Assembly (NCBI GenBank): GCA_050010195.1
Contig: JBEKLM010000001.1
Location: forward strand, 65,045 to 129,044
Direction: 5' to 3'
Length of the DNA stretch: 64,000 nt
From: Verrucomicrobiia bacterium
Lineage (GTDB): Bacteria; Verrucomicrobiota; Verrucomicrobiia; Palsa-1439
The first letter of the stretch is position 1, and every line of letters starts with the position of its first letter. The notes beneath the pieces are model-generated. The model saw only the letters and a list, made by a program, of their open reading frames with translations, was not told the origin of the DNA and made no database searches. Below, piece by piece: positions 24,611 to 28,860 of the stretch. The position numbers and the translations under genes are program-made.

Positions 24611-25273
24611 ATGAAATCACAATCTGAATTCTTAACCGCAATCCGTGACGACTGGACCCCCGAGAACATTGCCGGTTTGGTTTCAGCGATCACCGCTGGC
24701 TATGCGGCGGTGATCGAAAGAACAAACCCAAGCGTCGACCCGATTTACGACACACCGAATCTGTCACTCCTGCAGGGATACACACGATGGAACTTCGTAG
24801 ACTCTCGACTGTATCGCGCCTGCGACATAGGCCTTATCACGGGGATTAAACCGAAGTGGGTCCCTCTGACCGAAAATGGTACGGGGATTATGGCGCTGGA
24901 ATTGCAGGGTAGATTCACGTCCTTGATGGCGCATCACCTTCAGAATGCCGCCGACCCCCCAAGGTACTCGGAGCTGCGTTACGATCGGCGCCTTCGCAAC
25001 TGGCAGAATCCTATGCTTCCCGGGTACGGCGCTGACGAGCCGACCAACGGACTAATCCATTTGACGTTGGTTCACGGCAACAAGAATGCGGAGTTCGCGT
25101 TTCTCCGGATTTTCGACAATCCAGACGACCCGCAATCCTACGTCGCCGCGTCGGGGAACATCATGCTGAACCCGTCGATTATGATTTCGACCGAAGCGGA
25201 GCATGTCGAGGAGCCGAAGATTGAGCTGAAGAAGGAATCCCGCCAAGACGAACAACGAGCGCAGAACGAATGA
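24611..25273 (+). CDS. Hypothetical 220-aa protein (candidate toxin/effector partner of the downstream HTH-ImmA/IrrE gene)
   Basis: No recognisable motif, soluble, acidic/basic C-terminal tail. Stop overlaps the downstream start (ATGA). Lies in a low-GC islet; AT-rich promoter-like region with TTGACA at 24571. Confidence 0.5.
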   Translation: MKSQSEFLTAIRDDWTPENIAGLVSAITAGYAAVIERTNPSVDPIYDTPNLSLLQGYTRWNFVDSRLYRACDIGLITGIKPKWVPLTENGTGIMALELQGRFTSLMAHHLQNAADPPRYSELRYDRRLRNWQNPMLPGYGADEPTNGLIHLTLVHGNKNAEFAFLRIFDNPDDPQSYVAASGNIMLNPSIMISTEAEHVEEPKIELKKESRQDEQRAQNE

Positions 25274-26421
25274 ATCGCGCCGACCCAGAGAGAATCAGTC
25301 AAGCGAGAGAACTGGCCGGTCTTAGCAAGACGAAACTCGCTGACCTACTGGATGTGACGCCCGCCGCTGTCGCACAATGGGAAAGCGGTGTGAAGAGCCC
25401 GACAATGGATAACATAGTCGCGCTATCTCGTTCGTTGAATTTTCCAATGCCGCTGTTGCTAAGGGTGATTCCAAGAGAATTGTCCCATAAGGGGCCGGTC
25501 ACGTTTCGCGCATGGAACTCTGCAAACACACGTCGAGCCAATCGCCGAGCAGAACGATTGGCCGAACTAGTGGCCGAGGTGTTCCTGTGGCTGGAGCAGC
25601 ATATATCGTTGCCATCACCATCACTTCCGGAAATCAGCCATCGAGCGGACGTTGAGATGGCGGCCATAGAATGCAGAAGGACCTGGAAGCTCGGTGATCG
25701 CCCCATTCTGAAACTCGGAGAACTGATCGAATCAAAAGGCATAGCCATTGCGAGAGCCTCATTTGCCGACACCCGTTTCGACGCATTTTCGTGCATCATA
25801 AACGGTCGTCCATACGTTTTCTTGGGAGATGAGAAACTAGATCGCGCTCGGTCTCGCTTCGACGCTGCCCATGAGCTCGGACATCTTTTATTGCACCAAC
25901 ATCTGACAGAATCAGATTTCCTAACCGCAGACACGCTAAACACAATAGAAGCCGAAGCAAACCGTTTCGCAAGTGCGTTCCTGATGCCCGAAGGGACGTT
26001 CCTACCAGATGTTATGGATGCCAGCTTGGATGGATTTCTGAAATTGAAACCCAGATGGGGTGTTTCAGTCCAAGCAATGATCGTGCGTTCACACGATCTT
26101 GGGATCATCACTGACAACCAATACCGTGAGCTGTTTCGTCAGACAGGCTTGAAGGGATGGCGAAGAGCTAAGGGCGAGCCATTTGACGACATGGTACCAG
26201 ACATCCAAGGTTCGCTAGGAAAGAAGAGCTTAGAACTTTTGGAGTCAAACGCCGTTATACATGGCTGGGAGATCCCGACCGAGCTCCCAATGCCGACGCA
26301 TGTACTGTGCGAGGTGTTCCGAGCGAACCCTCAATTGTTCAGTCCCTCCGAGTTCGGGAATATAATCCCTTTCGAGAGGCCCGCTGAGGGTGACTCTACG
26401 GGCCGAAGGAGGAGTAATTGA
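25270..26421 (+). CDS. HTH_XRE (Cro/C1) DNA-binding domain fused to ImmA/IrrE-family (COG2856) zinc metallopeptidase
   Basis: N-terminal ISQARELAGLSKTKLADLLDVTPAAVAQWESGVKSPTMDNIVALSRSL is a classic XRE HTH. HELGHLLLH HEXXH plus downstream EANRFASAFLMPE glutamate match the ImmA/IrrE protease core. Confidence 0.8.
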   Translation: MNRADPERISQARELAGLSKTKLADLLDVTPAAVAQWESGVKSPTMDNIVALSRSLNFPMPLLLRVIPRELSHKGPVTFRAWNSANTRRANRRAERLAELVAEVFLWLEQHISLPSPSLPEISHRADVEMAAIECRRTWKLGDRPILKLGELIESKGIAIARASFADTRFDAFSCIINGRPYVFLGDEKLDRARSRFDAAHELGHLLLHQHLTESDFLTADTLNTIEAEANRFASAFLMPEGTFLPDVMDASLDGFLKLKPRWGVSVQAMIVRSHDLGIITDNQYRELFRQTGLKGWRRAKGEPFDDMVPDIQGSLGKKSLELLESNAVIHGWEIPTELPMPTHVLCEVFRANPQLFSPSEFGNIIPFERPAEGDSTGRRRSN

Positions 26422-26488
26422 AGCAGATCAACATGAGAGGAGACGATTACAATGTGCGGAGCTAAGAGGAAACCGCTGAGCTTCACAC

Positions 26489-26917
26489 TCAACGCTTGGG
26501 GAACAAATAATTGGCCACTATGATGAAAATACTTATGACGCTCGCGGTCGTCCCCCCAACCACGGCCAAGAGAACGCTGTCAGAAAGTTTGAAAACAGTC
26601 CTGATGGCGTAAAGTGCTTTCCCGTGAGAAATAATCATCGGAGGTGATGTCGTGTCGCTCAGGAAGCCCTGTAACAGCAGCATAGCGAACACACCGACAA
26701 GCCAGAGGCAGAGCATGCTGAAAATCTTGCGCGCATACTCTTTTCGCTCCGTGATGTCCTGACGGAATCCCTCCAGTTCCGCCTTCTGCCGATCGACCTC
26801 AATCTGCTTGGCATAATCCTTCTGTTCTTCTTCTGCTTCTGGCGTCGGCGCAGGAGCCGTGGGCTCTTTGATCTGCTTTAGGTTAATCATGGGCGCATCG
26901 GCGACCACAATCGTCAA
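26489..26917 (-). CDS. Small two-TM membrane protein (candidate membrane-acting toxin, PanT-like)
   Basis: Two hydrophobic helices (IFSMLCLWLVGVFAMLLLQGF and LLAVVGGTTASVISIFIIVANYLF). TTG start overlapping the upstream stop (TTGA); alternative ATG at 26890. Confidence 0.45.
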   Translation of the reverse strand: MTIVVADAPMINLKQIKEPTAPAPTPEAEEEQKDYAKQIEVDRQKAELEGFRQDITERKEYARKIFSMLCLWLVGVFAMLLLQGFLSDTTSPPMIISHGKALYAIRTVFKLSDSVLLAVVGGTTASVISIFIIVANYLFPKR

Positions 26918-27423
26918 TTCTTGGACTTTTGAAGGAAATATTCCTTTATCAAGCCATCCGGTATGTCGGCTCCCTTTTTGTCCTTCCCGCCCAACTCAAA
27001 CCAAGTTTTGAACCAAGGGGTGTCGGGTTGGTGTGTAAGTGTCGACAGCTGCAGTGCCGAGAAGCCGCCATATACTTCCCAAATTTTGTCGAAGAATTCC
27101 CCGAGAGTATGATCACTTGGCAGGCAACATTCGACGTACTTAATCTCCCCCTTTTTCATCCAAGCTTCCAAATCGAGGTCGGTGGCGTGATCCGTGATTG
27201 GCTCTGTTCCATATTGCTTGAATGCGTGATACACCGAGGGCACGACCGGGCCAAACCTCCACGCCTCAATCGATTCGTTCAGAAGCGCGGAATCTTTGAG
27301 TGCCAAATGCCAGCCGTGAGCAAAATAGAGTAGCTTTAGCAGCTTCATCGGGGTGACTGAGCTTCCCCGGCCGCTAGCAATATCCAGAATATGATTGGCG
27401 ACTGCCTTCGACGGATACCCCAT
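26914..27423 (-). CDS. Panacea-domain (DUF4065, GepA/SocA-like) protein, candidate PanA antitoxin
   Basis: MKLLKLLYFAHGWHLAL…EAWRFGPVVPSVYHAF matches the DUF4065/Panacea core (KLqKLlYfaqgW … aw..GPV…vY). 169 aa. Confidence 0.7.
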   Translation of the reverse strand: MGYPSKAVANHILDIASGRGSSVTPMKLLKLLYFAHGWHLALKDSALLNESIEAWRFGPVVPSVYHAFKQYGTEPITDHATDLDLEAWMKKGEIKYVECCLPSDHTLGEFFDKIWEVYGGFSALQLSTLTHQPDTPWFKTWFELGGKDKKGADIPDGLIKEYFLQKSKN

Positions 27424-27557
27424 GAATGCACCTTTTCACATGTTGCTAGATTCGCGTCAAGCACAACGATGTACCACACTTTTGTGTGGTGTCAAGCTTT
27501 TTGAATCTTTGCGTCCATCCGATTTCAAACCGAGCCACCATCCCGCTTTCGTCGGAG

Positions 27558-27586
27558 TTGACATCCCCCGCCGGATTTGCTAGCTT
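27558..27586 (+). promoter_or_regulatory. Candidate sigma70-type promoter for the aro leader transcript (TTGACA-17-TGcTAGCTT, extended -10)
   Basis: TTGACA 27558-27563, 17-nt spacer, TGn + TAGCTT 27578-27586. The predicted TSS would be only ~4 nt before the leader ATG, so this is uncertain. Confidence 0.3.
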
Positions 27587-27596
27587 ACATTTGAAC

Positions 27597-27686
27597 ATGA
27601 AGTCAGTGCATCAATACATCTCCGCAGTCCGGGCGTCGTATTATTGGTTTTACTTTAGCCAGCCCTGTCTGCGGGCTGTGTGTTGA
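27597..27686 (+). CDS. 29-codon attenuator leader peptide MKSVHQYISAVRASYYWFYFSQPCLRAVC with six consecutive aromatic codons
   Basis: Codons 27639-27656 = UAU UAU UGG UUU UAC UUU (Y Y W F Y F). The stop is 22 nt before an intrinsic terminator, directly upstream of the DAHP synthase gene. No obvious SD. Confidence 0.55.
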   Translation: MKSVHQYISAVRASYYWFYFSQPCLRAVC

Positions 27687-27707
27687 TGCGTAAACGTTGA
27701 CACCCAA

Positions 27708-27736
27708 CCGTCCCGCAGACGCGGGACGGTTTTTTT
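27708..27736 (+). terminator. Rho-independent terminator (attenuator 3:4 hairpin) ccgtcccgc-agac-gcgggacgg + T7
   Basis: 9-bp GC-rich stem 27708-27716/27721-27729, 4-nt loop, seven T 27730-27736. Upstream segment 27667-27675 (gtctgcggg) is complementary to 27712-27720 (cccgcagac) = antiterminator. 27660-27665 (cagccc) pairs with 27673-27678 (gggctg) = anti-antiterminator. Confidence 0.7.
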
Positions 27737-27780
27737 ATTGCCCAAAACCGAACCGCGTACAGGACATAAGGAGCAAAGGA

Positions 27781-28806
27781 ATGATCATCGTGTTAAAGCC
27801 GGGAACCAGTGAACAGGATGTCCAGCAGGTCGCGGACGCGGTGAAGAAGTTCAATTACGAGCCCCGCCTGATTCGCGGCGTGGAGCGCACCGTCGTCGCT
27901 TGCATCGGCGATGAACGCAACCATCACACCCTCGAATCCCTCATCGTGTTGCCGCAGGTCGAGAGCGTCACTCCCATTCAGAAGAAGTACAAACTCGTCA
28001 GCCGCGAATACCAGGGACGCGATACCGTGCTCGACGTGGCCGGACTCAAAATCGGCGGCGGCACGTTCCACGTGGTGGCGGGCCCGTGCTCGGTGGAAAA
28101 CCAGACGCAAACTTTGGAAACCGCGAAAGCGGTGAAGTCGTACGGCGCGACACTCTTTCGTGGTGGCGCATTCAAGCCGCGCACGTCGCCGTACGACTTC
28201 CAGGGATTGGGCCGCGAGGGGCTTGAGATGTTGAAGCAGGCCCGCGCGGCCACGGGATTGCCCATCGTGACCGAAGTGATGTCGCCGCAAGACGTGGAAA
28301 TGGTGGCGTCTTACGCCGACATTCTGCAGATCGGGGCGCGCAACGCCCAAAATGTCCCGTTGCTGGCCGAGGTCGCGGCGTCGGGCAAGGTCATCCTGCT
28401 CAAACGCGGGGTGTCCGGGTTGATCGACGAATGGCTGCTGGCCGCCGAGTACATCTGCGTGCATGGCAACAGCAAAGTGATCCTCTGCGAGCGGGGTATC
28501 CGCACGTTCGAGCACGCCTGCCGCAACACGCTCGATCTCAGCGCGGTCGCGGTCGCCAAAAAGGAAACGCACCTGCCGGTGTTCGTGGACCCGAGCCATG
28601 CGGCGGGCCGATTCGACATGGTGATCCCGCTCGCTCGCGCCGCCGTTGCGGTGGGCGCGGACGGTTTGCTGGTGGAAGTCCATCCCGATCCGGCTGCGGC
28701 ACTTAGTGACGGGGGCCAGCAGCTCAAACCCAAGCAGTTCGGCCAGTTGATGGCGGAAATTCGCCCCATTGTCGAAGTGATGGGCAAACAGTTGGGCGGC
28801 GCTTAG
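27781..28806 (+). CDS. 3-deoxy-7-phosphoheptulonate (DAHP) synthase, type I-beta with N-terminal ACT/ferredoxin-like regulatory domain
   Basis: Strong SD aaggagcaaaggaATG. N-terminal MIIVLKPGTSEQDVQQVADAVKKF regulatory domain. KDO8P/DAHP synthase barrel motifs (KPRTSPYDFQG, GARNAQN, VDPSHA). Confidence 0.9.
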   Translation: MIIVLKPGTSEQDVQQVADAVKKFNYEPRLIRGVERTVVACIGDERNHHTLESLIVLPQVESVTPIQKKYKLVSREYQGRDTVLDVAGLKIGGGTFHVVAGPCSVENQTQTLETAKAVKSYGATLFRGGAFKPRTSPYDFQGLGREGLEMLKQARAATGLPIVTEVMSPQDVEMVASYADILQIGARNAQNVPLLAEVAASGKVILLKRGVSGLIDEWLLAAEYICVHGNSKVILCERGIRTFEHACRNTLDLSAVAVAKKETHLPVFVDPSHAAGRFDMVIPLARAAVAVGADGLLVEVHPDPAAALSDGGQQLKPKQFGQLMAEIRPIVEVMGKQLGGA

Positions 28807-28829: not shown

Positions 28830-28860
28830 GGCGCTTCTGTGAAGCGCCAAGCCGTTTGTC
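28830..28860 (+). terminator. Candidate terminator hairpin after DAHP synthase (ggcgcttc-tgt-gaagcgcc followed by weak T-rich tract)
   Basis: 8-bp stem 28830-28837/28841-28848 then aagccgtttgtctctt. The U-tract is imperfect. Confidence 0.3.

Follow-up and report, generated by a model that had tools for sequence, protein, structure and literature searches.

Transcription attenuation by a translated leader peptide is a textbook mechanism, and leaders of this kind have previously been reported upstream of aroF, the gene for 3-deoxy-D-arabino-heptulosonate 7-phosphate (DAHP) synthase, in Corynebacterium and Acholeplasma. We analyzed a comparable arrangement in a 64,000-nucleotide (nt) stretch of a Verrucomicrobiia bacterium genome (Palsa-1439; assembly GCA_050010195.1, contig JBEKLM010000001.1, positions 65,045 to 129,044 of the forward strand; hereafter, the window), in which a short open reading frame (ORF) with a run of aromatic codons and an intrinsic terminator precede a gene for a type I-beta DAHP synthase. 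The aroR-aroF system of Corynebacterium glutamicum, which the initial annotation of the window rightly named as a precedent, has a Phe-Tyr-Phe leader with experimental support (Neshat et al. 2014; PMC11802643; first noted in PMC4046766). Like the element described here, it combines an aromatic-codon leader with a terminator before a DAHP synthase gene, and stalling for want of charged tRNA raises read-through, as we propose for the present locus. Compared by description, aroR differs in containing only Phe-Tyr-Phe, with no Trp, in a reported response to Phe but not to Tyr, and in its host, which belongs to the Actinomycetota, another phylum. The uORFC-13-1 motif found before aroF in Acholeplasma is a computational candidate for ribosome-mediated attenuation (Brewer et al. 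2021, PMC8632094). It likewise consists of an upstream ORF with promoter boxes, directly before an intrinsic terminator and a DAHP synthase gene, but, again by description, it has a U run coding for at least one Phe where the present locus has a six-codon block of Tyr, Trp and Phe codons, it possesses a ribosome-binding site, and its 24 representatives are confined to Acholeplasma and environmental sequences.

The trpL, pheL and pheM leaders of Escherichia coli (Rfam families Trp_leader and Phe_leader, RF01859) share a four-region logic with the present element, comprising regulatory codons, a stop codon at which a terminating ribosome blocks region 2, and an antiterminator that shares the 5' arm of the terminator. 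In the E. coli leaders as here, the terminator is more stable than the antiterminator, so the choice between the two would be kinetic. The E. coli leaders differ in that each senses a single amino acid, has a Shine-Dalgarno sequence, carries its regulatory codons inside region 1 (here they occupy the loop that separates region 1 from region 2), and controls terminal-branch or tRNA-synthetase genes rather than the entry enzyme. Structure-only attenuator predictions are listed for aroA-I-beta > tyrA of Thermus thermophilus and aroA-I-alpha > tyrA of Vibrio (Merino database, PMC1173090 Table 7); as far as the entries in that table go, they resemble the present locus in placing a terminator and antiterminator before DAHP synthase genes, I-beta included, and the entries, compared here by description, name no leader peptide or sensing mechanism and concern different lineages. 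Our literature search for leader-peptide attenuators in Verrucomicrobiota, which did not cover the comparative survey of Lopatovskaya et al. (2010) that may list such elements, found no report, and for the Planctomycetes-Verrucomicrobia-Chlamydiae (PVC) group the discussion is confined to a Chlamydia trpL of doubtful status (PMC7755916). Relative to the known aroF leaders, the element analyzed here brings all three aromatic amino acids together in a single uninterrupted block, precedes a Thermotoga-type enzyme, is spread broadly across uncultured soil bacteria and, judging from its sequence, seems to depend on leaderless initiation. What this analysis adds is the apparent leaderlessness, a bias towards TTT and TAT codons, and the occurrence of analogous leaders at about a third of the sampled metagenomic type I-beta genes.

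We propose that the element, with high probability, attenuates transcription of the DAHP synthase gene by a ribosome-mediated (leader-peptide) mechanism, in response to the charging state of tRNA-Tyr, tRNA-Trp and tRNA-Phe (Table 1). The initial annotation had put forward a classical attenuator of this type, and comparative genomics, covariation and ribosome-constrained folding all support it. Transcription would start at a conserved promoter (TTGACA, 17 nt, TGnTAnnnT) a few nucleotides before the leader AUG. When aromatic aminoacyl-tRNAs are plentiful, the ribosome would reach the UGA at 27684, within region 2, and cover 27667-27688; with region 2 covered by the terminating ribosome, the terminator (27706-27736) would form and transcription would end ~45 nt before the gene. 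If no ribosome were present, region 2 would pair with region 1 (27602-27627) and the terminator would again form. Scarcity of one aromatic tRNA would be expected to stall the ribosome on 27639-27656, with a footprint reaching to ~27666 that disrupts the region 1:2 helix, and the freed region 2 could then pair with the 5' arm and loop of the terminator (27707-27720) before its 3' arm is made, allowing read-through into the DAHP synthase gene.

Table 1 Features of the predicted attenuator and the gene that follows it (positions in the window)
Feature	Position	Strand	Details
Leader promoter, -35 box TTGACA	27558-27563	+	TTGAC 36-41 nt 5' of the leader start codon in 35/35 Verrucomicrobial loci
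Extended -10 element TGc TAGCTT	27578-27586	+	17-nt spacer, then TAnnnT in 31/35 loci; TG extension in 23 of these
Gap between -10 element and ATG, 10 nt	27587-27596	+	7-13 nt across loci, mode 10
Leader ORF, 29 codons + TGA	27597-27686	+	Encodes MKSVHQYISAVRASYYWFYFSQPCLRAVC; ATG 27597, TGA 27684-27686
Region 1 (5' strand of anti-antiterminator)	27602-27627	+	Pairs with 27669-27701 in the minimum-energy fold
Regulatory codons TAT TAT TGG TTT TAC TTT (Y Y W F Y F)	27639-27656	+	Leader codons 15-20
Local hairpin cagccc/gggctg	27660-27678	+	Seen only when region 1 is masked
Region 2 and top of antiterminator hairpin	27667-27703	+	Outer 5' strand 27667-27676; contains the stop codon 27684-27686
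Antiterminator inner helix, 9 base pairs	27680-27688 with 27695-27703	+	Loop 27689-27694; from folding
Region 3 (terminator 5' arm 27706-27716 and loop 27717-27720)	27706-27720	+	
Terminator stem, 11 base pairs (8 G-C), loop AGAC	27706-27731; T7 run 27730-27736	+	-21.3 kcal/mol, z = -6.2 against shuffles
Region 4 (terminator 3' arm and T7 run)	27721-27736	+	From folding
Shine-Dalgarno sequence AAGGAG of the DAHP synthase gene	27768-27773	+	Contrasts with the leader ORF, which lacks one
DAHP synthase gene, type I-beta, N-terminal ferredoxin-like regulatory domain	27781-28806	+	Pfam, structure match

The leader described in the initial annotation, a 29-codon ORF containing six consecutive aromatic codons, was verified in the sequence in its start, stop, peptide and codon run, and the DAHP synthase gene reported 95 nt downstream is present, at a distance of 94 nt from the leader stop. 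YYWFYF is the sole aromatic run of at least six residues in the six-frame translation of the window, where 0.008 would be expected, so we set aside a chance origin of the run. Among the other terminators in the 64 kb, none had a leader-like ORF upstream. The aromatic leader in this window is confirmed as a real sequence feature.

An unconstrained fold of 27590-27745 (-65.9 kcal/mol, z = -5.7) consisted of a long region 1:2 hairpin and the terminator. The region 1:2 hairpin spans 27602-27701 (-42.6 kcal/mol, z = -5.2) and holds the aromatic codons in its apical part. Each of the structures drawn earlier from the letters could be recovered, with differing fates. The strong intrinsic terminator placed after the leader stop was confirmed as drawn in Table 1. 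The antiterminator pairing of gtctgcggg (27667-27675) with cccgcagac (27712-27720) is exact, the two being perfect reverse complements that form a helix of 9 base pairs (bp), but it is too small a picture of the structure: the antiterminator at 27667-27720 (-26.1 kcal/mol in total, z = -5.0) adds a C27676-G27710 pair, pairs between GU27678-27679 and AC27707-27708, and the inner 9-bp helix. Region 3 doubles as the 3' strand of this structure (27707-27708, 27710 and 27712-27720), which sequesters 8 of the 11 nt of the terminator 5' arm together with the terminator loop. The inner helix is built from GTGTTGATG/CGTTGACAC in the clade of the window and from TTGACG/CGTCAA in other relatives, so that its architecture is kept while its sequence differs. 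The short 1:2 hairpin proposed between 27660-27665 and 27673-27678 can form, but only as a clade-specific local structure, the main conserved region 1 lying at 27602-27627. We rejected it as a general anti-antiterminator because roughly half of the relatives lack its 5' strand (the CAGCCC columns) and because it is outcompeted by the antiterminator in a fold of 27657-27720.

We sought relatives of the locus by a scan of one genome per species, which gave 44 loci, 38 of them in metagenome-assembled genomes of Verrucomicrobiota, mostly from peat, bog and soil. Upstream DNA was readable at 37 Verrucomicrobial loci, and the 36 leaders considered below comprise 35 of these and a Terriglobia locus (L043). 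The Verrucomicrobial DAHP synthases are mostly 79-99% identical to that of the window, three others being 64%, 57% and 88% identical (the last over a 665-nt fragment), and a DAHP synthase with an identical protein sequence occurs on a 283-kb JGI (Joint Genome Institute) metagenome contig. Upstream of these orthologous genes, where the initial annotation had suggested looking for a conserved leader, 35 of the 37 loci share one layout of promoter, short ORF, W/F/Y cluster, stop codon within GTTGA, terminator and gene, with enzymes 57-99% identical; this frequency contradicts the accompanying remark that such a leader would be unusual for the lineage. The start codon of the leader is ATG, or GTG in two loci; eight different lengths occur, from 22 to 30 codons, and the ORF is open and in frame in every case. 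Its aromatic clusters include YYWFYF, WYWFYF, WFWFYF, WFWFFYF, FGFYFYF, WYFYF and WFYYF. Aromatic positions swap among F, Y and W, and 34 of the 36 leaders hold all three residues; at the level of sequence such swaps are non-conservative in nucleotides and would be conservative for the demand on aromatic aminoacyl-tRNAs. The N-terminal part of the peptide, a third to a half of its length, diverges freely among relatives. From the last aromatic codon to the stop there are 7-9 codons in the 35 Verrucomicrobial leaders, with the TGA inside the conserved GTTGA. Both the terminator and an equivalent antiterminator were found in all 36 leader-bearing loci, the terminator lying ~50 nt past the stop in the Verrucomicrobial layout. 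Where the DAHP synthases are 79-99% identical, the terminator sequence, AACCGTCCCGC-loop-GCGGGRCGGTTTTTTT, is nearly invariant.

Two Verrucomicrobial loci depart from this layout. Nothing comparable was present upstream of the gene at L034, whose enzyme is 64% identical to that of the window. At L019 (DAHP synthase 84% identical) the leader ORF has been lost by deletion, and the covariance model described below matches weakly (E = 0.03). This natural deletion variant should terminate constitutively or be regulated differently. In what remains of the L019 locus (2366-2500), directly after a cold-shock-protein gene, the TTGACA box, the terminator and the GGTTGACG...CGTCAA helix are all still present.

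Covariation was counted in a 31-sequence alignment (A1), with controls in which the pairing partner was slid by 1-3 columns and with 500 shuffles. In the region 1:2 helices, 83% of cells were paired compared with 30-46% in the slid controls, seven pairs changed on both sides (for example columns 14/100, with G-C in 14 sequences and A-U in 11), and none of the 500 shuffles reached the observed score. In the outer helix of the antiterminator, 87% of cells were paired compared with 41-59% in the slid controls. Column 80, in region 2, covaries with column 137 in the terminator loop (U-A 19, U-G 5, G-C 3), a base that has no role in the terminator itself; the same column 80 also covaries with column 30 in region 1. 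In two relatives (L021 and L035) the change at column 80 turns a leader Leu codon, CTG, into an Arg codon, CGG, alongside a matching change in the terminator loop, and since residue and pairing partner change together, we conclude that what is conserved in the C-terminal tail is the pairing and not the peptide.

We examined how the position of the ribosome would affect the balance between these structures. The initial annotation had suggested folding the alternative structures with and without masking; all three do form (z -5.0 to -6.2), and the terminator persists at equilibrium. Equilibrium folding was rejected as a switch test in two versions, one in which a 28-nt footprint was masked and one in which everything 5' of the stalled ribosome was masked, the terminator staying in place in both (in 32 of 36 loci in the second). 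Because the terminator persisted in these folds, we judged the switch on 36 transcripts cut just before the terminator 3' arm, with everything masked up to 12 nt past the A-site codon. With the ribosome stalled on the first or middle aromatic codon, the antiterminator was predicted in all 36 leaders at -18 to -32 kcal/mol, taking 5-11 nt of the terminator arm (an exception to this range is the distant L038, whose -44.9 kcal/mol includes the contribution of an unrelated upstream hairpin). A stall on the last aromatic codon left the antiterminator in 34 leaders, and it weakened to -11.0 kcal/mol in L029 and -9.8 kcal/mol in L043. With the ribosome at the stop codon it was gone in all 36 loci, where no more than 5.5 kcal/mol of stability was left (-5.5 kcal/mol or weaker), and without a ribosome region 1 takes region 2 in most loci. 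The predicted geometry in the window is tight: with the last Phe codon in the A site the footprint ends at ~27666, and the antiterminator strand begins at 27667. A footprint on the aromatic codons covers 27621-27627 or its surroundings, from which we infer that a stalled ribosome would disrupt the region 1:2 helix in this model.

The promoter of the leader gave no call in a consensus promoter scan, because its -10 hexamer matches TATAAT at only three of six positions, and it was comparison among loci that revealed it. Assuming the usual promoter spacing, we predict that transcription starts near 27593, ~4 nt 5' of the AUG, leaving a 5' untranslated region of ~0-7 nt. No Shine-Dalgarno-like motif was present within 20 nt 5' of the start codon in 34 of the 36 leaders. 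Given the short distance predicted between the transcription start and the AUG, the leader is probably translated from leaderless or nearly leaderless RNA. Translation of the ORF is indirectly supported by the length variation that preserves the frame, the fixed distance between ATG and promoter, the conservation of aromatic class and the bias towards rare codons, all of which suggest a translated reading frame. When the window was compared with 13 relatives, nucleotide similarity started abruptly at 27520-27597, the DNA 5' of 27520 being unrelated, and ran through the DAHP synthase gene and into a downstream YfhO-like gene where the locus reaches that far. Conservation thus sets in with the promoter of the leader itself.

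Codon choice within the leaders differs from that of the genes they precede. In 35 distinct leaders, TTT outnumbers TTC by 72 to 16 and TAT outnumbers TAC by 57 to 32 (82% TTT and 64% TAT), compared with 67 to 239 and 28 to 191 in the adjacent aroF genes (22% TTT and 13% TAT), which corresponds to odds ratios of 16 for Phe and 12 for Tyr. The long ORFs of the window favor C-ending Phe and Tyr codons by ~2:1. The presence of rare, wobble-read TTT and TAT codons at the sensing positions would fit a stalling device.

Several observations weigh against reading the element as a leader-peptide attenuator. The support is wholly computational, and the relatives are all uncultured metagenome-assembled genomes. 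Their kinship means that the shuffle statistics and the P values for codon bias overstate independence, and, the sequences being related, we take the covariation statistics as supportive and not as probabilities. The GCGGG/CCCGC core of the antiterminator is invariant and therefore says nothing either way on its pairing, so that antiterminator covariation rests on two positions. With everything 5' masked, the full-length leader at equilibrium keeps the terminator despite an imposed stall in 32 of 36 loci, and in the window the terminated state is predicted at -40.5 kcal/mol against -26.1 kcal/mol for the antiterminator. Since the terminator wins at equilibrium, polymerase could read through only if kinetics favor the antiterminator, a situation known from the E. 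coli trp leader; in our model the decision must fall within the ~15 nt between the synthesis of region 3 and that of region 4. The leader has no Shine-Dalgarno sequence, so its translation would rely on putative leaderless or short-UTR (untranslated region) initiation, and the TTT/TAT bias could instead stem from selection for an AU-rich, unstructured loop.

Alternative RNA structures by themselves suit any attenuation mechanism, and both they and the missing Shine-Dalgarno sequence would accord with an attenuator switched by a metabolite (riboswitch), by uncharged tRNA (T-box-like) or by an RNA-binding protein (TRAP-like), the ORF being incidental. We consider such a switch improbable. The 5' half and the loop, where the ligand would have to bind, have divergent sequences, and what is kept there is an open frame of variable length, a fixed ATG-promoter distance and interchangeable aromatic residues; moreover, the 7-9-codon spacing to the stop and the position of the stop within region 2 make sense only for a ribosome. 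Rfam gave no family at threshold and no T-box or riboswitch family at E up to 10, and the region contains no series of GAG/UAG repeats of the TRAP type. The ORF might alternatively matter for its product, either as an aromatic-rich micropeptide or as an arrest peptide that senses a free amino acid in the ribosomal tunnel instead of tRNA charging. Arrest peptides exist, TnaC among them, which offers a precedent, and the close clade conserves the C-terminal tail S-Q-P-C-L-R-A-V-C well. Tail conservation, however, tracks base-paired nucleotides (CTGCGGGC and GTTGA) rather than residues: the unpaired codon between the paired tracts varies among V, L, A, M and E, the last residue is C, G or D, and Leu gives way to Arg where the pairing partner changes as well. 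With the N-terminal half of the peptide unconserved, and with the peptide always at most ~50 nt from a terminator whose alternative pairings reach into the 3' end of the ORF, we rate a functional product marginally lower still than a ligand-operated switch.

The lowest probability of all, close to negligible, falls to the absence of any regulation, with the hairpin an ordinary terminator or insulator for transcription from upstream and the aromatic ORF arising by chance in a T-rich spacer. The upstream islet varies among strains, which makes an insulating terminator plausible, and L019 retains the terminator with no leader ORF. Yet the upstream gene lies on the other strand, a conserved promoter stands between it and the ORF, and aromatic runs of this length are expected only 0.008 times per window. 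The ORF and terminator also recur together in 35 Verrucomicrobial genomes and at 23 of 71 metagenomic loci, as opposed to 0 of 71 in each control, and region 2 covaries with the terminator loop. Leader-peptide attenuation driven by aromatic tRNA charging thus remains the reading that we favor.

The gene that the attenuator is predicted to control begins 44 nt after the end of the T7 run (27736). Its product matches PF18152 (DAHP_snth_FXD, residues 1-68) and PF00793 (DAHP_synth_1, residues 88-325; E = 1.5e-81) in Pfam, and aligns colinearly over its full length (residues 1-337) with DAH7PS of Thermotoga maritima (1RZM/3PG9; E = 2.5e-112). By homology with the Thermotoga enzyme, the ferredoxin-like domain probably adds allosteric feedback, with inhibition by Tyr or Phe. 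The C. glutamicum aroF enzyme, compared with this type I-beta protein, is a type I-alpha DAHP synthase. The next gene downstream lies on the opposite strand, so the transcription unit consists of the leader and one gene.

We extended the comparison beyond Verrucomicrobia. At the Terriglobia locus L043 (2329-2449), a leader encoding MGKNSMLERTRFYFYWRWAGR is followed by a terminator, and a Shine-Dalgarno sequence is present there. A metagenome scan with a DAHP synthase alignment yielded 80 loci, 71 of which had at least 200 nt of upstream sequence, and we counted as a leader a short ATG-initiated ORF with at least four aromatic residues in seven and a terminator within 20-110 nt. A leader and terminator of this description precede 23 of the 71 metagenomic type I-beta DAHP synthase genes, and the same search gave 0 of 71 on the reverse complement and 0 of 71 inside the gene. 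The metagenomic loci are among L047-L114 (e.g., L051, L060, L076 and L083). Leaders found at them include MSHYYWFRFSKAPN, MNRSAYSYWFRFWYPPI, MATKIISNNWYWFYYFYAPVCPMLRRT and MELFRYYYYYCYYGQVCPEVDTRTF; several have tails like VCPxLRR, a hint from the sequence of a similar region 2 design. A covariance model built from 31 Verrucomicrobial leaders matches the right place in 12-15 of the metagenomic loci, at weak scores (E = 7e-5 to 0.4) that allow both homology and convergence between the two sets of leaders. In a search against Rfam 15, the window region belonged to no family at threshold (Phe_leader, RF01859, scored 17.5 bits against a gathering cutoff of 55, E = 3.3), and a search with 20 related loci gave no match except one tRNA.

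We lean, by a small degree, towards the broader proposal that the element founds an uncatalogued, widespread family of aromatic leader-peptide attenuators gating entry into the shikimate pathway in Verrucomicrobiota, Acidobacteriota-like and other poorly studied soil and peat bacteria, in which a six-codon block reads three tRNAs and the Verrucomicrobial version is leaderless and uses rare U-ending codons. If true, the present element would be a natural sensor of three inputs, and no ribosome-mediated attenuator would have been documented in its phylum before it. For the abundant uncultured Verrucomicrobiota of peat and soil, the annotation would read that tRNA charging seems to govern aromatic flux at the RNA level, in addition to a probable allosteric control of the enzyme itself; the corresponding task falls to TyrR/TrpR-type repressors in E. 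coli (PMC11802643). It would also mean that attenuation is used outside the phyla usually studied, implying transcription-translation coupling and apparently leaderless initiation there. A new Rfam family could be built on the alignment and covariance model, metatranscriptome studies could use the element to recognize the true aroF transcription unit, and six adjacent codons reading all three aromatic amino acids would be a compact, reusable part for engineering the production of aromatic compounds.

The surroundings of the leader and its gene contain further features. A terminator-like hairpin on the forward strand at 27471-27492, GTACCACAC-TTTT-GTGTGGTGT followed by CAAGCTTTTT, lies ~65 nt 5' of the leader promoter, between that promoter and a divergent SocA-domain gene, and might insulate the promoter against upstream transcription. 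Directly 5' of the leader promoter is a strain-specific islet (24611-27423), the 13 relatives having no similarity upstream of ~27520. Its forward strand carries an HTH_3/Peptidase_M78 (ImmA/IrrE-like) gene at 25270-26421 and an ORF of 220 amino acids (aa) for which Pfam gave no match. On its reverse strand, a 142-aa ORF (26489-26917) with a hydrophobic C-terminal half shares 4 nt with the SocA/Panacea antitoxin-domain gene (26914-27423), and this pair looks like a Panacea-type toxin-antitoxin system. Downstream, 24 nt after the DAHP synthase stop codon, is a perfect hairpin at 28830-28848 (GGCGCTTC-TGT-GAAGCGCC), which occurs once only in the window and recurs exactly at unrelated positions in two relatives (L006:449-467 and L009:1274-1292); it may belong to a small dispersed repeat or serve as a shared terminator-like element.

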